Below, in pieces: positions 19,015 to 40,299 of a stretch of DNA of 40,299 bases. The notes under the pieces were generated by a model that did no database searches, had not been told where the DNA came from, and saw nothing but the letters and a program-made list of their open reading frames with translations. This stretch comes from Escherichia phage UFJF_EcSW4: the sequence record PP856269; one strand, given 5' to 3'. The stretch's first letter is position 1. Each line of letters opens with the position of its first letter. The translations under genes and the position numbers were made by a program.

Positions 19015-19419
19015 ATGCTACCATATCTCAACTCACGCGAAGGTCGCCACATGTGCGCTTGTCGCCTCTGGGAAGACGGGCAGTCTAACTTCAAGTCATT
19101 TGAGGACTTCAAGGCTCATACTTACCGTATGGCTGACGAGTTCGACGGTGAAGAATACACAATCTACGATGTCTCAGGTCAACCAGTAGCGTATCTCTAC
19201 ATGCTGGCTACCGCATCTTGGCACAGACCGACTCCCGGTCTTGACCTTTCAATCGTCGCTATTCGTCGTGACTCGCAGTCCTCCCGCAAGGTTCTTGAGA
19301 CTGTCAGACACATCATAGACGAAGAGTGCAAGCGTTGGGGTCTTGGCTGGTATTCTCGTGTCAAGCATGTTTCCGGGTCGGTAGACATCGTAACAACTAA
19401 GGAGATTAATCGTGGGTAA
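19015..19419 (+). CDS. Hypothetical protein, 134 aa (gene 7 position)
   Basis: Positional only. Confidence 0.55.
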   Translation: MLPYLNSREGRHMCACRLWEDGQSNFKSFEDFKAHTYRMADEFDGEEYTIYDVSGQPVAYLYMLATASWHRPTPGLDLSIVAIRRDSQSSRKVLETVRHIIDEECKRWGLGWYSRVKHVSGSVDIVTTKEINRG

Positions 19420-19660
19420 ATCAATCAGTAAGGCATTCAAGAAAGTGGTGAAAAGTACGCTAGGGACCGTTGGTCTTGGCTCTGATGACGCACCTAAGGT
19501 TGTTGAGGCTCAGACCCCAGCAGCACCAGTGGAAGTACCGAACGACAAAGTGGAGGATGTGGATACTGAAACAACCGCATCTGACGAGAAGAAAGTGAAG
19601 CGTTCCGGTAAGCGTAGCCTTCAGGTCTCTCGTACCTCTGGTGGCGGTATTTCTATTTAA
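19412..19660 (+). CDS. 7.3: gp7.3-like tail/host-range protein
   Basis: GTG start after AAGGAG; the Lys-rich N-terminus and C-terminal KRSGKRSLQVSRTSGGGISI match T7 gp7.3 (...KKSLSVARSSGGGINI). Confidence 0.8.
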   Translation: MGKSISKAFKKVVKSTLGTVGLGSDDAPKVVEAQTPAAPVEVPNDKVEDVDTETTASDEKKVKRSGKRSLQVSRTSGGGISI

Positions 19661-28120: not shown

Positions 28121-30403
28121 ATGGCTAGTAATATTGAATCAGCTCTGGCTAATCGGACTATGGGTCGCGGCAGAGCGCCGGGTAAAACTATCGCCGTCAA
28201 CTATCAAGCAGCCAACGTTCAGGCTCCGACTGGGGACTCCGGTCTGGCTCGTGCGTTAACCAACTTCGTTGAGTCTGGAACTGGATTGTACAAGCAGTTC
28301 AAAGATGATGAGAAGACACGGGCTGACGAGCGGTCTAACGAGATTATCCGTAAGCTGACTCCTCAGCAGAGACGAGAGGCTATCCAGAACGGGACACTGC
28401 TGTATCAGGACGACCCGTATGCTATGGAAGCACTGCGAGTCAAGACTGGTCGTAATGCTGCCTTTGCTGTAGACGACGAGATTAACGTTAAGATTCAGAA
28501 CGGTGAGTTCCGTACACGTCAGGACATGGAAGAGTATCGCCACCAGCGACTTCAGGACGCCGCTAAGTCCTATGCTGAAGAGGCGGGTATTAACCCTACA
28601 GACGAGTTCTTCCAGCGTGGGTTCAACGATAACATCACAGACCGCAACATCGCTATCTATGGGTCTTTCAATAAGTATTTCAGTAAGCAGTCTGAAGAGA
28701 CAGCAATGTTGAATACTCGTATTGAGATGAACTCATTCCTGAACGATGGCGACCTGATGCGTTCACCTGAGTCTGGCAAGACCTTCATGGCCTACCTTCG
28801 TGATGGACTAACTACTGCTGCCATCCCTTCGGACCAGCGAGCACGGGAGGTAATTACCCAGACGGTCCGTGACGCAATCCAGAAGTCAGGCGGCTCCAAC
28901 TTCCTACAGCAAGTACGAGGCGAGCGAATCACCCTTAACGGCGTGGATGCTACAGTCGAAGAGATTGTAGGACCTGATGTCTTCAACGCTGCTATTGTTG
29001 AGGCGCAAGGAACTGAGTACAAGCTGGTGGCTAAGTATCAGGAGGACTTAGCGTTAGGCGTTCAGTCTGCGATTCTTCAGGACGACCCAACCATCGGTCT
29101 GGACCAGATTCAGAAACTCAAGGAGCAGAACAACCTGCTTCAACCGGGTGAAGAACTCACGCCTCAGCGTCAGATGCTTATTAATGCCGAAGCCAGCTTG
29201 CTTGAAGCGGTAAAGCGTAAGTCTGCTGAACAGGCGAAGGAGAACACTAAGTTAATCCAGACTCAGAACAAGCAACTGGTCATTGACCAAGTGTATCAGC
29301 GACGTCTGGCTGGAGACAACGTGTCCACCAACTATGAGGACCTTCCGGTCTCTGAAGCCACAGGAGAGTTCAAGCGTTCAGACATGAACAACTATGCGTC
29401 TTCTAAGCTACAGCAGATTGACCAGATGGACATCCCTGAGGCTGCTAAGGACGCACAGAAGGTTGCATTATTAAGAGCTGACACTAACAACGGTCCGTTC
29501 CGTAATGCCTTCCAAACGCTTACTCAGGACGCTGCTGGTGAGTGGCAAGCTGCGGTCATCCGTGGGCAGTACGACCCAGACAAGATGCAACGCTTCGAAT
29601 CTCTTCGTCGTGCCTACACTCAGGACCCTTCAAGTTTCGCTGCTCTGTATCCTGACCAAGCTCAGTTGTTCTCTACGTTCGACCAGATGGACAAGATGGG
29701 TCTGGACCCTCAGACGATGATTGAAGCTGATAAGCAAGCTGCAAGTCAAAGCCGTGAGATGCGCATGGAGTCAGACAAGGCGTGGCAGGAGTTGAAGAAC
29801 GACTCTCGGAATAAGGACCTTTCGCGTCTTCCTACGTCTCTAGACTCAAGTGCTCGTAAGGTCTGGGACTCATGGTACTATCGTACAGGTAACGCTGACG
29901 CTGCAACGCAGCAGACTCAACGCTGGCTGAACGAGAACACCGTAACGTTCCAGTCTGAAGGTTCTGACGGTAAGTCCATCGGCATGGTGTCAAAGCACCA
30001 GCTTATGGTCGGGGATAACCCAGAGTCGTGGCAGGTGGGTCGAGACATTATCGACACCGCTCGTAAGCAGCTCATTAAGGCTAACCCTTGGGTAGTTAAC
30101 TCTCAGTTGTCCGTTGTTGAACAGAACGGCTCTATCTTCCTCCAAGACGCTACAGGGACTATTCGTATTCGCTACGATAAAGAACTTGTAGGTAAACTCT
30201 ACCGCGAACAACAGCAGAAGGCACAAGATGCCGCATACGCTCAGGCAGAACGTGACGCTAACAAGCGAGCGCGTATCGTCGGGACTAAAGCTGCTGGTGA
30301 CAAACGTCGAGCTGACCGAGAGGCCAACATCGAGAAGCGCGGTGGGATGTATAATGACGTCTCACTGGAGGGTATCGCAAACGTACTAATTGGTAAGGAG
30401 TAA
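28121..30403 (+). CDS. 15: Internal virion (core) protein gp15
   Basis: ADERSNEIIRKLTPQQRREAIQNGTLLYQDDPYAMEALRVKTGRNAAF is near-identical to T7 gp15; similar length (760 aa). Confidence 0.93.
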   Translation: MASNIESALANRTMGRGRAPGKTIAVNYQAANVQAPTGDSGLARALTNFVESGTGLYKQFKDDEKTRADERSNEIIRKLTPQQRREAIQNGTLLYQDDPYAMEALRVKTGRNAAFAVDDEINVKIQNGEFRTRQDMEEYRHQRLQDAAKSYAEEAGINPTDEFFQRGFNDNITDRNIAIYGSFNKYFSKQSEETAMLNTRIEMNSFLNDGDLMRSPESGKTFMAYLRDGLTTAAIPSDQRAREVITQTVRDAIQKSGGSNFLQQVRGERITLNGVDATVEEIVGPDVFNAAIVEAQGTEYKLVAKYQEDLALGVQSAILQDDPTIGLDQIQKLKEQNNLLQPGEELTPQRQMLINAEASLLEAVKRKSAEQAKENTKLIQTQNKQLVIDQVYQRRLAGDNVSTNYEDLPVSEATGEFKRSDMNNYASSKLQQIDQMDIPEAAKDAQKVALLRADTNNGPFRNAFQTLTQDAAGEWQAAVIRGQYDPDKMQRFESLRRAYTQDPSSFAALYPDQAQLFSTFDQMDKMGLDPQTMIEADKQAASQSREMRMESDKAWQELKNDSRNKDLSRLPTSLDSSARKVWDSWYYRTGNADAATQQTQRWLNENTVTFQSEGSDGKSIGMVSKHQLMVGDNPESWQVGRDIIDTARKQLIKANPWVVNSQLSVVEQNGSIFLQDATGTIRIRYDKELVGKLYREQQQKAQDAAYAQAERDANKRARIVGTKAAGDKRRADREANIEKRGGMYNDVSLEGIANVLIGKE

Positions 30404-30407
30404 CATA

Positions 30408-33400
30408 ATGGCGACTCGTGGTATTCGCAATAACAATCCGGGTAACATCCGGGTAAGTAAGGACCAATGGGAAGGAATGACTGGAGATGATGGCGCATTT
30501 GTCACCTTCGATAGTCCAGAGTCTGGCGTCCGAGCTTTAGGTAAAAACCTGCTGTCCTACGGTCGCCAAGGTTATGACTCCATCGAGAAGATTATCAATC
30601 GATGGGCACCTCCTAACGAGAACGACACTAAGGCTTATATTGACTCAGTGGTGGCTGCAACTGGTATTCCAGCTACCCAGAGTCTCGACCTATCGGACAC
30701 TGACACCCTGTCTTCTCTGGCTCAAGCTATCAGCTTCCATGAGACAGGATCCCGGTACGACCCAGAAGTCTATCAGAAGGGAGTCGCAAGAGCACTCAAT
30801 GGCATTAGCCCAAAGACTCCACCAGTAAGCGCTAACGTATTTGACGCACTCACGGAAGGACTCAAGGCTAAACCTAAAGTAGCTCTGGGTGAGAACCTTC
30901 CGACCGCTGCTGGTATGAACATTGAGGGTCAAGCACCTGAAGCTCCCAACGAATCTTTCGGTGAGATGTTCTATAAGGCTACTGGCGAGACCATGCAGGA
31001 ACGAGAGGGCCGCTCTACGTGGTTCGGTTTCGGTGCGGCTACAGAAGCTGAAGTGAAGAACTCTATGGTCGGCGTGGCTATCAGAGCTGGTCAGACTGAG
31101 GACTCACTGGATGTCATTGGCGATGTGTTCAACCCAACCCGATGGAATAACCATAAGTGGTCTCGTGAGGAGCTGGACCAGATTCGTAACGCTGGGGTTC
31201 TGCCTCAGTATTACGGGGTCATTACTGGTGGCTCCCCTCAGAACCTGACCGAGCTTATTAACTTGGCGCTTGAGAACCAGAAGTTGGACCAAGAGAAGGC
31301 CAAGGCCGGGACTGGTGCTCAACTGGCGGCTGGTGTGATTGGTGCTGGCGTGGACCCTCTGACCTACGTTCCTATTGCTGGGCAGGTAGGTAAAGGTGGG
31401 AAGCTAGTCAACAAGATGTTCACTGTGGCTGCTCAGTCTGGTGCTCTGGCGGGGGCATCCGAGATTGCTCGAACCTCAGTTGCTGGTGGGGACGCTCATG
31501 TGGCTGAGGCAATTATGGGCGGTGCTCTCTTCGGTGGGGGAATGACAGCTATCGGGGACGCTATCGGCAAGGCCTTAGGCAAGACAACCAACGAGTTCGC
31601 CGGGCCAGCCACACGTCTGGAAGCCCGTGAGACTGCACGTAATGTTGATGGTCAGGACCTGTCGCGTATGCCAATCCGTGAAGGTGAGCAGACATTTAGT
31701 CACCAAGGCGTTAAGTTCGCTGACGTGCCGAATGAGCCGGGTAGTGTACGACTGGAAGATGGTTCAATCCTGATTGGTGAGAACCCTCTGAACCCTAAGA
31801 CACGTCAAGTCTTTGACGAAGTGATTGAGCCTGAACGGGCCGCTGCTGGTGTGAACCTTGGTGGACTTACCGAGATTGGCCTGAAGCTGCTTCGGTCTGA
31901 GAACCCTGAGATTCGTGGAGTAGCTGCTGACTTAGTGCGTTCACCGACTGGTATGCAGTCTGGGGCCTCAGGTAAAATCGGGACCACTGCGTCAGACGTA
32001 TTCGAGAGACTTCGTGCTGTGGACCATCGGTTCTACAACGACATCGACGATGCGGTTACTGAGGCACTAAAGGACCCGTACTTCCAGACAGCATTCTGGC
32101 GAGACTCTGGAGCATTCCGTCAGGACATCTACCAGCGCGTGTCTATGGCTATCGAAGATGGTAGCGGAAATCTGAAGGCTGAACTGACTCCTGGAGAACT
32201 GAAAGTCTATGACCTACTGAAGAACCAGTTTGACGCCAAGCGTGAGATGATGGAGAACCCGGCGATGTTTGGTCGTCAAGACGCTCAGTCTATCTTTCCG
32301 GGCAGCCGCTTCAAGGGAACATACGTCCCGCATGTGTATAGCAACCAGATGAAGGAGCTGTACATCAAGGAGCTTGGGAGTCCAGAGGCATTACAGGAGG
32401 CCATCAAGAAGTCATGGTTGACCAGCTATGCGTCTCGACCTGAGGTCAAGAAACGTGTGGACGAGGCACTCTTAGAGGCTGACCCTACGTTGACTCCAGA
32501 AGGACTTGCGGCTGCGGTCGATAAGTACGCCAACGATAAGGCTTATGGTATCTCTCACACCGAGCAGTTCGAGCGTTCATCCGTAATGGAAGAGAACATC
32601 AATGGTCTGGTGGGTCTGGAGAACAACAGCTTCCTTGAGGCTCGTAACCTGTTCGATAGCGATATGTCAATCGTCCTACCTAACGGTCAGACCTTCAGTG
32701 TCAACAACCTGCGTGAGTGGGACATGGACAAGATTGTCCCGGCCTACAACCGTCGAGTTAATGGCGATATTGCTATCATGGCTGGTACAGGCAAGACCAC
32801 GAAGGACATGAAGGACTTGGTTGAGACCATGATGAACAAGGCTGGGGATGACGGTAAGTTGAAAGGTGAAGTATCTACCTTACGTGACACCTTGAAGATT
32901 CTAACTGGTCGTGCTCGACGTGATGGTGCTGATGATGCAGCCTTCGCTACCGTGATGCGCACAATGACAGACCTATCGTTCTTCGCCAAGAATGCCTACA
33001 TGGGTGTTCAGAACTTAACGGAGATTGGTGGTATGCTGGCTCGTGGCAACGTTCGTGCACTGCTTCATGGAGTCCCTATTTTCCGTGACCTAGCCTTCCG
33101 TAACAAGAAGGTTGGGGCCTCGGAGATTAAGGACCTGCATAATGTGATCTTCGGTAAGGAACTGGACGACTCAATCCGTCCGTCTAAACAGGATGTCATT
33201 GACCGTCTGCGGTCTTACAGTGACCTCGGTCGTGGTACAGCTACAGCTCTGGGGACTGCCAAGTATTACACTGGCGAACTTGCAGTACGCTCTCCGTTCA
33301 CTAAAGTCCTCAACGGTACGACCAACTACCTGTTAGATGCTGGACGTCAAGGCTTCCTGTCTGACATCGTGGAGCATAGCCTTACTGGTAGTAAGCGTAA

Positions 33401-34295
33401 GTTCGATGACCGCTGGCTTAAGACCGCTGGTATCTCTGACGAGCAGTGGAAGGGAATTAAGTCCCTCATCCGTGAGTCAGTGACGCGTGGTCCAGACGGG
33501 AAGTATACCATCAAGGATAAGAAGGCGTTCAGTCAGGACCCAAGGGCTATGGACCTGTGGCGTATTGGTGATACCATCGCTGACGAAACGTTACTCCGGC
33601 CCCACAAGCTGTCCAACATGGACGCCAAGGCTTATGGTCCTCTCGCTAAGACTGTCCTTCAGTTTAAGAACTTCGTTATCAAGTCTATCAACGGTCGAAC
33701 CATGCGTACCTTCTACAACGCCACCAAGAACAACCGAGCTATGGATGCTGCACTGTCCACGGTTATGTCTATGGGTCTGGCTGGGATGTACTACATGGCT
33801 CAGGCGCACATCAAGGCTTACGCTATGCAGGACGGTCGTGACCGTGAGTACCTGAAGCAAGCCCTGAACCCGACGATGATTGGCTATGCGGCCCTGTCCC
33901 GTAGTTCACATCTAGGTGGACCACTTGGGGTCGCTAACATTCTTGGTGGTATCGCTGGGTATGAGGACACTAAGATGCTCCGTTCGTCTATCCTCCCGCG
34001 TTCACCTACAGAGAAGCCCGAACGTGCCATCTCATATGGTGCGGCTACAAGTGACCCTGTGATGAATGTCGTTGGTAACTTCTTGGAGCAGGTCCCGGCT
34101 TTCGGCTATGCTGCTAACGTTGGCGCTTCGGCATACAACTTGGCTGGCTACCTCAAGGCTGATACCCGTGTCAACGAGCGAGACTACATGACCGGGATGT
34201 ATAACACGTTCCGTGAACTTGTACCGAATGACCCGATTACCCAGAAGTTGCTGCTTGGGACGTTTGAGGAGCAAGGCATCCACATCAAGGACTAA
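30408..34295 (+). CDS. 16: Internal virion (core) protein gp16 with a divergent, non-SLT N-terminal module
   Basis: From about residue 200 onward matches T7 gp16 (TRWN.H.W..EELD.IR, VITGGSPQNL, GVDPLTYVPIAG, RLEARETARN, VRSPTGMQSGASGK, GTYVPHVY, LRPHK...); the first ~180 aa (MATRGIRNNNPGNIR...) lack the T7 lytic-transglycosylase motifs. Start at the ATG with AAGGAG at spacing 8; the track ORF starts at a TTG at 30390. Confidence 0.93.
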   Translation: MATRGIRNNNPGNIRVSKDQWEGMTGDDGAFVTFDSPESGVRALGKNLLSYGRQGYDSIEKIINRWAPPNENDTKAYIDSVVAATGIPATQSLDLSDTDTLSSLAQAISFHETGSRYDPEVYQKGVARALNGISPKTPPVSANVFDALTEGLKAKPKVALGENLPTAAGMNIEGQAPEAPNESFGEMFYKATGETMQEREGRSTWFGFGAATEAEVKNSMVGVAIRAGQTEDSLDVIGDVFNPTRWNNHKWSREELDQIRNAGVLPQYYGVITGGSPQNLTELINLALENQKLDQEKAKAGTGAQLAAGVIGAGVDPLTYVPIAGQVGKGGKLVNKMFTVAAQSGALAGASEIARTSVAGGDAHVAEAIMGGALFGGGMTAIGDAIGKALGKTTNEFAGPATRLEARETARNVDGQDLSRMPIREGEQTFSHQGVKFADVPNEPGSVRLEDGSILIGENPLNPKTRQVFDEVIEPERAAAGVNLGGLTEIGLKLLRSENPEIRGVAADLVRSPTGMQSGASGKIGTTASDVFERLRAVDHRFYNDIDDAVTEALKDPYFQTAFWRDSGAFRQDIYQRVSMAIEDGSGNLKAELTPGELKVYDLLKNQFDAKREMMENPAMFGRQDAQSIFPGSRFKGTYVPHVYSNQMKELYIKELGSPEALQEAIKKSWLTSYASRPEVKKRVDEALLEADPTLTPEGLAAAVDKYANDKAYGISHTEQFERSSVMEENINGLVGLENNSFLEARNLFDSDMSIVLPNGQTFSVNNLREWDMDKIVPAYNRRVNGDIAIMAGTGKTTKDMKDLVETMMNKAGDDGKLKGEVSTLRDTLKILTGRARRDGADDAAFATVMRTMTDLSFFAKNAYMGVQNLTEIGGMLARGNVRALLHGVPIFRDLAFRNKKVGASEIKDLHNVIFGKELDDSIRPSKQDVIDRLRSYSDLGRGTATALGTAKYYTGELAVRSPFTKVLNGTTNYLLDAGRQGFLSDIVEHSLTGSKRKFDDRWLKTAGISDEQWKGIKSLIRESVTRGPDGKYTIKDKKAFSQDPRAMDLWRIGDTIADETLLRPHKLSNMDAKAYGPLAKTVLQFKNFVIKSINGRTMRTFYNATKNNRAMDAALSTVMSMGLAGMYYMAQAHIKAYAMQDGRDREYLKQALNPTMIGYAALSRSSHLGGPLGVANILGGIAGYEDTKMLRSSILPRSPTEKPERAISYGAATSDPVMNVVGNFLEQVPAFGYAANVGASAYNLAGYLKADTRVNERDYMTGMYNTFRELVPNDPITQKLLLGTFEEQGIHIKD

Positions 34296-34313
34296 ACTAT
34301 CACTATAGGAAAC
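34291..34313 (+). promoter_or_regulatory. Phage RNAP promoter (phi17-position)
   Basis: ACTAAACTATCACTATAGGAAAC; the gp16 stop TAA is inside it. Confidence 0.75.
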
Positions 34314-34360
34314 GGGAGGCGCTACCATAGGTCTCCCTTTAATTCATAACAGGAGGCATA

Positions 34361-36391
34361 ATGTCCACGATTACACAATTCCCTTCAGGAAGCACTCAGT
34401 ACAGGATTGAGTTCGACTACCTAGCCAGAACGTTTGTTGTTGTTACGCTGGTGAATAGCTCTAACCCTACCCTGAACCGTGTACTGGAAGTTGGTCGAGA
34501 TTACCGATTCCTTAATCCAACGATGATTGAGATGTTGGTTGACCAATCAGGTTTCGACATCGTTCGCATTCACCGTCAGACTGGAACTGACTTAGTGGTA
34601 GACTTCAGGAATGGCTCAGTGTTGACAGCTAGTGACCTGACAAATTCAGAGCTTCAGGCTATCCATATTGCAGAAGAAGGTAGAGACCAAACGGTTGACT
34701 TAGCGAAGGAATATGCCGATGCTGCTGGTAGCTCTGCTGGCAACGCTAAGGATAGCGAGGACGAAGCACGACGAATCGCTGAGAGTATCAGGGAGGCTGG
34801 TCTAATTGGTTATATTACCCGTCGCTCCTTCGAGAAAGGCTACAACGTTACAACATGGAGCGAGGTCCTGCTATGGGAAGAGGATGGTGATTATTACCGC
34901 TGGGATGGTACGCTTCCAAAGAACGTTCCTGCTGGTTCAACTCCTGAAACTTCCGGTGGGATTGGATTAGGTGCGTGGGTTAGTGTTGGTGATGCTGCTT
35001 TAAGAAGTCAGATTTCAAACCCGGAAGGGGCAATACTCTACCCAGAATTACAGATGGCACGCTGGCGAGATGAGGGCGATGTTCGCGGATGGGGTGCTAA
35101 AGGTGATGGTTCTGCGGATGATACAGAGGCTTTCAAGGCAGCACTGGCAACAGGAAAGAATCTATATATCCCCGTTGGTATATACATCATTAAAGAGACT
35201 TTGTACTTTAAGAACCAAGTTATTAAAGGTGGGGGAATATCTCCATCACCAAGTCTTGGTACAATCCTAGCAATCTCTCACAATGAAGCAGCTTTTAAGT
35301 ATGACGTTAACTCTGGATACTCCATGGGTGGCTACTTAGGCGGTTTCTTCATTGATTATGGTGAGAACAAGCCAGACAACTATGGTGGTCGCAAAGGTAT
35401 TGATATTGGTGATGCATCGCAGACAGTATGGCCTTCACAATTTATCATTGAGAACATCATAGTACGTGGTGCGTACTTTGGTATTCATGACGTGACAGGG
35501 GCTTTTCAGTATACCATGCGTAACGTATTGGCGATTAATTGCTGGGAAGGTTTCCGTAAGCATATTGGTACTACAGTCCTAATGGATACATGCTACGCAC
35601 TTAATTGTTATCAGGCGTTCAATTTTGCAAACGTGTACAACATGACTATGAACAATTGTGCAATGGACGGCTGTAATGATATACAAGGTCTACAGGCTTT
35701 TGATATTAACAACTGTAAAGGTATGGTAATAAATGGCATGTACAGCGAGAACTGTGAGATTCATCATAATGGACATGCCTCTATATATATTCATGGGGAC
35801 TCAACAGTAACACTTAACGGATATGCACTACATTCCCACAAAGTTCTGGCTAGTTCTGGGGAGGCTTACTTCTTACGAGCACATGAAAGTTCTCGCGTTA
35901 CTGTTGATGGTATCTTCTTCGGGGAAGACCTGACGTCTACTGCTGTATTCATGTACCCAGTCCTGTCTTCTGGGGATGCTAGAGTTCAGCTTGGAACTAC
36001 TAGATTGAAGTTGTGGACTGGTGCTACGGGTGGCGCGTCACTGGCTGCACTAGGTAACAGTTTGATTGAGTATGACAACACAGTCTTTGTTCCAACAGTC
36101 ACGGTCGGATGGTGTAGCAACAACGGAGTTGTAGCCAAAGGTACTCTTGCAGTTAACACTACGCTTGAACCAGGTGCTGACCTGAATGCTGGTAATATCA
36201 CCCTCACTGGTGACTACAAGCCAACTAAGGGGGATGTGCTTGTGTATGGTGCTACCTTTGATGTTAAGTCATGTTCAATTATTCTCAAGCCAATAGGGGA
36301 GAATTTATGTAATGTGTACATTAAGAACTTAAGTGCAGGTGGTAGTGCTACTCTTCTTGGTGACTTGATGGTACAGGCCATCCGACGCTAG
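34361..36391 (+). CDS. 17: Tailspike/tail fiber: T7 gp17-like N-terminal adaptor plus pectate-lyase-type beta-helix (putative polysaccharide depolymerase) domain
   Basis: N-terminus (YRIEFDYLARTFVVVTL...DYRFLN...LVVDFRNGSVLTASDL...AIHIAEEGRD) matches the T7 gp17 N-terminal domain; from about residue 240 GWGAKGDGSADDTEAFKAAL...LYIPVGIY is the classic start of a right-handed beta-helix glycanase. Confidence 0.9.
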   Translation: MSTITQFPSGSTQYRIEFDYLARTFVVVTLVNSSNPTLNRVLEVGRDYRFLNPTMIEMLVDQSGFDIVRIHRQTGTDLVVDFRNGSVLTASDLTNSELQAIHIAEEGRDQTVDLAKEYADAAGSSAGNAKDSEDEARRIAESIREAGLIGYITRRSFEKGYNVTTWSEVLLWEEDGDYYRWDGTLPKNVPAGSTPETSGGIGLGAWVSVGDAALRSQISNPEGAILYPELQMARWRDEGDVRGWGAKGDGSADDTEAFKAALATGKNLYIPVGIYIIKETLYFKNQVIKGGGISPSPSLGTILAISHNEAAFKYDVNSGYSMGGYLGGFFIDYGENKPDNYGGRKGIDIGDASQTVWPSQFIIENIIVRGAYFGIHDVTGAFQYTMRNVLAINCWEGFRKHIGTTVLMDTCYALNCYQAFNFANVYNMTMNNCAMDGCNDIQGLQAFDINNCKGMVINGMYSENCEIHHNGHASIYIHGDSTVTLNGYALHSHKVLASSGEAYFLRAHESSRVTVDGIFFGEDLTSTAVFMYPVLSSGDARVQLGTTRLKLWTGATGGASLAALGNSLIEYDNTVFVPTVTVGWCSNNGVVAKGTLAVNTTLEPGADLNAGNITLTGDYKPTKGDVLVYGATFDVKSCSIILKPIGENLCNVYIKNLSAGGSATLLGDLMVQAIRR

Positions 36392-36549
36392 AAATGTACG
36401 CATGGATTCGCTGAGGTGGTTATCCATGAAGAGGGTGAGGAGTGGGGTGTAGATGTTAGAAGGTTGTGGAGGTAGAGGCTAACTACACGCTAACCAACGT
36501 ATGGTAACAACTTTGGGTCACGGACGACCCGCTTTAAACTGGAGGTTTT

Positions 36550-36744
36550 ATGATTGAGTTAGACTTCAAGAATGAGGTCCTTAAAGCCTCTCCTATAGTC
36601 GGGACCGCTGCGGCTGATGGTGCCAGTCGGTTCTTCTTCGGACTTACACTGAACGAATGGTTCTACGTTGCAGCTATCGCGTACACCGTTGTCCAGATTG
36701 GTGTGCTAGTCTACAAAACGATTAAAGGAGGTGGTAAAACATGA
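36550..36744 (+). CDS. 17.5: Holin (class II)
   Basis: ASPIVGTAAADGASRFFFGLTLNEWFYVAAIAYTVVQIG matches T7 gp17.5 (AAPIVGTGVADVSARLFFGLSLNEWFYVAAIAYTVVQIG). Confidence 0.88.
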   Translation: MIELDFKNEVLKASPIVGTAAADGASRFFFGLTLNEWFYVAAIAYTVVQIGVLVYKTIKGGGKT

Positions 36745-40013: not shown

Positions 40014-40299
40014 CAAGAACCTCAAGTCTCCCCATAGGCCCTCTTTCAGTCTCGACCAAAGGCCCTACCCCAGTATATCATAAGGTTGGACCGATGGTCA
40101 AGACTTCAGGTCAACGATAGGTGGTGACTATGGCTTCGGGAAGGACGATAGGTGGTGACTATAGGCCCTCTTTCAGTCTCGACCAAAGGCCCTACCCCAG
40201 TATATCATAAGGTTGGACCGATGGTCAAGACTTCAGGTCAACGATAGGTGGTGACTATGGCTTCGGGAAGGACGATAGGTGGTGACTATTGGTCTGTCT
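40014..40299. repeat. Direct terminal repeat, right copy (identical to 1-286)
   Basis: Exact identity with the window start, including the internal 128-bp tandem duplication. Confidence 0.9.

Follow-up and report, generated by a model that had tools for sequence, protein, structure and literature searches.

A Kayfunavirus tailspike uniting a conserved anchor with a foreign beta-helix cassette that may target the Escherichia coli O2 O-antigen

Gene context and architecture of the anchor

The gene 17 position of Escherichia phage UFJF_EcSW4 raises the question of what has taken the place of the T7 fibre at this locus, where the replacement came from and which host glycan it may act upon. The window analysed here (PP856269; 40,299 nt) is a complete, terminally redundant phage genome, bases 1–286 of which recur as 40014–40299, with a G+C content of 49.9%; the phage belongs to the genus Kayfunavirus (K1F-like; Autographiviridae, Studiervirinae), and the DNA of its late half is 95.8% identical to that of phage Vec13 and 94.2% identical to that of phage pO2. 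The explanation that we favour, with moderate confidence, is that the sole receptor-binding protein of this Kayfunavirus joins a conserved anchor to a foreign beta-helix cassette, which most likely cleaves the E. coli O2 O-antigen.

The tailspike gene is located exactly where the initial annotation had placed it, at 34361–36391 on the plus strand, with an ATG start and 676 codons followed by a stop. It occupies the T7 gene 17 position between gene 16 and the holin gene, in the order gp15 (from 28121), gp16 (30390–34295), tailspike (from 34361), holin (from 36550) and small terminase (from 36741), an order which is collinear with that of Vec13. The proposal that no second receptor-binding gene is present holds as well, as Vec13 possesses one tail-spike gene and a PHROG scan of the ten remaining small ORFs returned no fibre or spike. 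The same scan assigned gp7.3-like ‘host range and adsorption’ proteins at 19015–19660.

Immediately 5′ of the tailspike gene, and overlapping the gene 16 stop codon, is a phage RNA-polymerase promoter, CTAAACTATCACTATAGGA (34292–34310, plus strand), the equivalent of T7 phi17. Its core, TCACTATAGGA, occurs in ten copies genome-wide (at most one mismatch), all of them on the plus strand, against 0.78 expected by chance, and the aligned copies share a common 19-nt consensus. The promoter is followed on the same strand by a 5′-UTR hairpin, GGGAGGC...GUCUCCC (34314–34337; RNAfold, −13.5 kcal/mol over 34311–34360), and by a strong Shine-Dalgarno sequence, AGGAGG (34351–34356), which was read from the sequence and ends 4 nt before the ATG. 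A search for an intrinsic terminator 3′ of the gene yielded no convincing candidate.

The N-terminal 116 residues (34361–34708, plus strand) constitute a tail-attachment domain of the T7 gp17 type. The Pfam profile Phage_T7_tail (PF03906) matches residues 11–115 with 56.6 bits against a cut-off of 25.2, and the T7 gp17 chains 7boz and 8dsp align with residues 7–116 (E 1e-15 to 1e-17); the profile score and the gene 17 position together place the tailspike in this attachment family. The homology to T7 gp17 that had been suggested for this region is therefore real, although it spans approximately 116 residues rather than the ~150 originally claimed. An Ala/Glu-rich linker follows (residues 117–150; 34709–34810, plus strand), which was read from the sequence, is conserved along with the rest of the Kayfunavirus anchor and has a weak low-complexity match to LEA_4 as its sole Pfam hit. 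It leads into a Tail_spike_N neck domain of the TSP1/gp66 type (residues 151–211; 34811–34993, plus strand), which the initial annotation had overlooked; here PF18668 matches residues 156–211 with 69.2 bits against a cut-off of 25, and the N-terminal domains of CBA120 TSP1, TSP3 and TSP4 (4oj5, 5w6f, 5w6h) align to residues ~151–267.

The closest solved counterpart of this region is 9vvr, an 843-residue tail spike present in 18 chains, the first 250 residues of which (9vvr_A) are identical to those of the UFJF_EcSW4 protein, the two sequences parting directly after GWGAKGDG. Residues 1–250 represent the anchor, comprising the gp17 N-domain, the linker and the neck. Six trimers would account for the 18 chains of 9vvr, and by analogy with this structure and with the T7 fibres the tailspike is probably trimeric and mounted as six trimers. 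Beyond the homologous tail-binding domain the likeness to T7 gp17 ends, since the T7 protein continues as a coiled-coil shaft with a non-enzymatic tip that binds rough LPS, whereas the UFJF_EcSW4 protein continues as the Tail_spike_N neck and a beta-helix.

Recombination junctions and distribution of the cassette

Searches by tblastn revealed residues 1–262/276 at 91–95% identity in dozens of Kayfunaviruses with differing distal parts, K1 endosialidases included, while full-length matches were obtained for Vec13 and pO2 only. The protein thus has the modular arrangement of Kayfunavirus tailspikes, in which a conserved anchor of ~250–275 residues precedes a variable distal module. The endosialidase gp17 of K1F and vB_EcoP_F illustrates this arrangement, as it has the same anchor (95% amino acid identity over residues 1–262 in the case of vB_EcoP_F), the same gene position and promoter context and the same junction; its distal part, however, consists of a beta-propeller sialidase with a beta-barrel, a stalk and a C-terminal Peptidase_S74 chaperone, in place of which UFJF_EcSW4 has a beta-helix and a small beta domain and no chaperone.

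Both ends of the exchanged segment are discernible by blastn. Kayfunavirus DNA identity of 95–97% extends up to 35110 (phage ZG49) or 35126 (vB_EcoP_F), the best match for 35093–36355 is the Vectrevirus Mt1B1_P10 (75% nucleotide identity), and Kayfunavirus identity of 95–99% restarts at 36413–36446. The upstream matches overlap by 34 nt (35093–35126, plus strand) coding for GAKGDGSADDTE, a junction common to both parental lineages which encodes the conserved beta-helix cap motif. The swapped-in receptor-binding cassette accordingly comprises ~1.3 kb (35111–36412, plus strand), carrying the beta-helix, the C-terminal domain, the stop codon and 21 nt beyond, and has a G+C content of 43.2%, compared to 48.9% in the anchor and 49.9% genome-wide. 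The downstream spacer (36413–36549, plus strand), in which the Kayfunavirus identity has returned, separates the cassette from the holin gene, which begins at 36550. The anchor conserved in the genus has thus been fused to this foreign cassette by recombination at the conserved GWGAKGDG...DDT coding motif.

The tail protein of Vec13 (YP_009807371.1; UniProt A0A345AQH9, ‘Probable tail spike protein’) is 99.6% identical to that of UFJF_EcSW4 (3 substitutions) and the pO2 orthologue (WLJ69865.1) is 99.0% identical (7 substitutions); with the same genomic position and the same mosaic structure, the three are essentially without difference. Both genes bear automatic annotation only and both records give the host simply as ‘Escherichia coli’, and no functional study emerged from a literature search for Vec13, OR228483 (pO2), 9VVR and O2-specific tailspikes. 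The cassette is otherwise rare, with eight clusters matched in a search of 5.8 billion, and an exhaustive HMM search of 1.84 billion representatives returned 38 proteins at E ≤1e-30, about ten of which span the whole module. A blastn search with 11-base words, which detects DNA down to roughly 65–70% identity, did not find it in any of 5,426 complete E. coli genomes, indicating that these genomes hold no close prophage copy and that the approach of associating prophages with serotypes (PMC10408124) is not applicable.

The module occurs on three scaffolds. In UFJF_EcSW4, Vec13 and pO2 it is fused to the gp17 anchor. In K1-5/SP6-like podophages with a separate gp17-like adaptor it forms a free-standing spike of 473–479 aa, carried by Mt1B1_P10, T145_P2, AL505_P3 and a 44-kb metagenomic contig. 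In the third case it is part of a 620-aa gp66-like protein that has its own Tail_spike_N domain and adjoins a second spike on a 71-kb contig, which we take to be N4-like in view of its length and of this gp66-like spike. Over residues 241–676 the module is 80% identical in amino acids and 75% in nucleotides to the spikes of Mt1B1_P10 (479 aa; QNR52596.1), T145_P2 and AL505_P3, a similarity that includes the conserved ladder described below and the C-terminal domain; it amounts to 80–90% in the ladder region (residues 341–490) and is lowest at residues 491–585 (66–73%). In these Vectreviruses, which are dual-spike phages resembling K1E and K1-5, the spike has a short N-terminal peptide, is mounted on the gp17-like adaptor and is encoded adjacent to an endosialidase gene, whereas in UFJF_EcSW4 the module is joined covalently to the anchor and serves as the sole spike.

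The beta-helix module and its candidate active site

The putative catalytic body of the protein is a right-handed parallel beta-helix at residues 241–585 (35081–36115, plus strand). Its cap motif at residues 241–292 matches the Pfam profile Pect-lyase_RHGA_epim (PF12708) with 32.8 bits against a cut-off of 27, and within it lies the entry motif GWGAKGDGSADDTEAFKAAL...LYIPVGIY (residues 243–276) from which the initial annotation had predicted the fold; Beta_helix (PF13229) matches residues 363–493 with 23.9 bits, slightly under its cut-off of 25.9. Structure prediction is in agreement, as an AlphaFold2 model of residues 241–676, computed as a monomer from six input sequences, is all beta (mean pLDDT 78.6, pTM 0.70), being weak at residues ~280–360 and with pLDDT mostly above 85 beyond residue ~410, and its top Foldseek match is the Sf6 tailspike. 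In a viral structure library the Vec13 and P10 proteins are close to the model and are followed, after a wide gap, by generic ‘pectate lyase superfamily’ proteins. Superposition of our model on the one held for this protein in BFVD reaches a TM score of 0.60 only, a value which renders the global geometry, as opposed to the fold, uncertain.

The last ~90 residues (586–676; 36116–36388, plus strand) are modelled as a separate domain of beta strands (pLDDT 77–93), which may serve as a trimerisation or carbohydrate-binding module. Identity to P0004 is 86% in this domain compared to 36–56% in the helix body. Pfam, NCBIfam and PDB sequence searches returned no chaperone (Peptidase_S74) or fibre domain and no match covering residues 586–676. 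Of the two outcomes that would have counted against the initial annotation, absence of a beta-helix fold and a fibre or chaperone domain at the C-terminus, neither was thus obtained. The tailspike likewise lacks a match to the endosialidase beta-propeller (PF12217) and stalk (PF12219), whereas the 811-aa spike of P10 matches both profiles as well as Peptidase_S74 in the same kind of search.

Sequence comparison offers no guidance to the active site, since single-sequence and profile searches of the module against solved structures found matches limited to the ~50-residue N-terminal cap motif, which is common to GH55 glucanases, phi29 gp12 and others, and no sequence similarity to any characterised enzyme outside it; an NCBIfam search was also without a match. 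The O-antigen endoglycosidases of P22, Sf6 and HK620 and CBA120 TSP2, which the tailspike would resemble in its mode of action, have the fold alone in common with the module (9–13% sequence identity), differ in their attachment domains and do not allow their catalytic residues to be aligned with confidence.

Conservation within the family is more informative. In an alignment of 41 members, extending to about 25–30% identity, a ladder of residues comprising D377, K400, G403-T404-T405, C411, D436, E463, E501 and Y503 (35489–35863, plus strand) marks a candidate active-site groove. G403, T404 and E463 are present in all 41 members, as is D436 when D or E is counted, D377 and K400 in 40, T405 and C411 in 39 and E501 in 32, and the whole ladder is retained in the KM02 homologue at 32% identity. 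The ladder residues are 23–38 positions apart, approximately one helix rung, and the model has each of D436 and E463 as the last residue of a long strand, the two strands being consecutive and the pLDDT there 90 or higher. A separation of one rung is also found between the paired catalytic carboxylates in the tailspikes of P22, Sf6 and HK620. On the basis of conservation, strand-end position and this spacing, D436 and E463 are the best candidates for the catalytic residues, presumably helped by D377, K400 and E501. We infer that the tailspike is catalytic, in which case the beta-helix would bind and cleave a host surface polysaccharide, a step that would let the phage drill its way down to the outer membrane and would so determine its host range.

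Substrate, rival explanations and significance

With high confidence the protein can be regarded as the sole receptor-binding protein of the phage, a glycan-directed beta-helix tailspike on a swapped cassette, and the interpretation offered by the initial annotation is thereby supported. That it is specifically a hydrolase of the O2 O-antigen we consider somewhat better than an even chance, its placement among active depolymerases and O2-specific spikes being plausible. The substrate proposal derives from the 80%-identical homologues, and in particular from Mt1B1_P10, which carries two spikes, the 479-aa beta-helix module and a complete K1 endosialidase. This phage uses either the K1 capsule or LPS-bound O-antigen, as single mutants remain sensitive while a double mutant lacking emrR and DBZ19_04325, a gene of the O-antigen ligase family, is resistant, and in vivo selection with P10 gave rise to wzy and neuB mutants (PMC12361893). 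By elimination, the beta-helix spike would be the O-antigen spike. Both Mt1B1 and T145, on which two of the three module-carrying Vectreviruses were isolated, are O2:H6 with K1; the third phage, AL505_P3 (OZ035802; 44,662 bp), was isolated on an O1:K1 host.

Host-range evidence was drawn from part (49 phage columns, about 125 rows) of a published matrix of 96 phages and 403 strains, in which a T145_P2 score of at least 2 was taken as infection; strain K types are in silico genome predictions. Within this part, T145_P2 infects K1 strains of several O types and, among 11 O2 strains not typed K1, six (ECOR-49, ECOR-50, IAI38, NILS52, NILS61 and NILS62), the five resistant ones being all four O2:H1 strains and M863. 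None of the 96 typed strains that are neither O2 nor K1 is infected, while two O-untypeable strains are. The association with O2 is significant (Fisher test of O2 versus others, p = 2.6e-7, the strains being phylogenetically related), and a stricter test confined to positively typed non-K1 capsules, with ECOR-49 and ECOR-50 counted as one lineage, gave p = 0.002. The pattern of AL505_P3 in these rows is closely similar: of the six O2 strains infected by T145_P2, ECOR-49 (score 1) is the only one on which it scores below 2, and on the five that resist T145_P2 its score never exceeds 1. Its infection of O2/K5 strains was considered as a confounder and rejected, given that AL505_P3 carries the same module. 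In the same rows IAI58 (O1, ‘no capsule’) is strongly lysed by AL505_P3, a carrier of the K1 endosialidase, which suggests that K1 calls can be missed; with IAI38, NILS61 and NILS62 belonging to lineages that are usually K1, three of the six O2 positives are weakened, and IAI38 was downgraded as a clean capsule-less O2 case.

The rival that deserves most attention, although we consider it unlikely, is that the protein is a depolymerising beta-helix tailspike for a different glycan, such as colanic acid, enterobacterial common antigen, another O-antigen or a capsule of group 2 or 4, and that the link of the Vectrevirus homologues to O2 does not carry over to a copy that is 80% identical. Tailspike specificity can shift through few substitutions, and the 66–73% identity at residues 491–585 leaves scope for such a shift, whereas the 80–90% identity of the ladder region argues against one. 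Relatives of the module at 29–33% identity occur in phages propagated on rough K-12, which has no O-antigen (KM02, JeanPiccard), and the Vec13 and pO2 records are without a host serotype; against this, a near-identical phage bears the name pO2, the genetics of P10 point specifically to O-antigen, and the non-K1 strains infected by T145_P2 in the rows available are all O2 or O-untypeable.

The remaining rivals concern chemistry rather than specificity. The O2 repeat unit comprises three L-Rha, GlcNAc and D-Fuc3NAc (C34H56N2O21, 828.34 Da; PMC8969423, PMC7685785) and contains no uronic acid, so that beta-elimination is impossible and the enzyme, if O2 is its substrate, must be a hydrolase. A polysaccharide lyase with an acidic capsule as its substrate, which the family name ‘pectate lyase’ might imply, is therefore highly improbable: the name denotes the fold only, hydrolases score equally or higher in fold searches, and in the part of the matrix used T145_P2 scores 0 on four non-O2 K5 strains and one non-O2 K4 strain and 1 on one non-O2 K7 strain. 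It is also improbable, if less so, that the tailspike is without glycosidase activity and merely binds its polysaccharide or modifies it without cutting the chain. D377, D436 and E463 are nearly or fully invariant in a family this diverged and are spaced by one rung in the manner of the P22, Sf6 and HK620 pairs, and the best structural matches are enzymatically active tailspikes; moreover, for short-tailed phages the use of a thick O-antigen layer generally calls for its degradation or deacetylation. Glycoside hydrolysis, most likely of the O2 O-antigen, would thus remain the preferred reading. A bolder version of it, which we advance tentatively and at rather less than even probability, is that the cassette founds an uncharacterised glycoside-hydrolase family cleaving the rhamnose-rich O2 polysaccharide via D436/E463, as a self-contained module that moves among at least three phage architectures. 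No CAZy-type relative of the module is detectable by sequence.

Among extraintestinal and avian pathogenic E. coli, O2 ranks as a major serogroup, and in the part of the host panel considered here O2 strains, most of them with a K1 call, make up a frequent type of extraintestinal isolate. A defined O2-specific tailspike would serve as a serotyping reagent and in the trimming of O2 polysaccharide, and would aid the choice or engineering of phages against O2 strains in which the K1 capsule has been lost or switched off; an O2 glycoconjugate vaccine has already been analysed (PMC8969423). The locus is routine in kind and brings no conceptual advance to existing knowledge of Kayfunavirus modularity, and a near-identical, unstudied copy was already present in public databases; its value is in a substrate prediction that is testable and of practical use, together with recombination breakpoints that are unusually clean. 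One receptor-binding cassette on three attachment scaffolds, with precise breakpoints, constitutes a clean natural case that is relevant to rational tailspike swapping.

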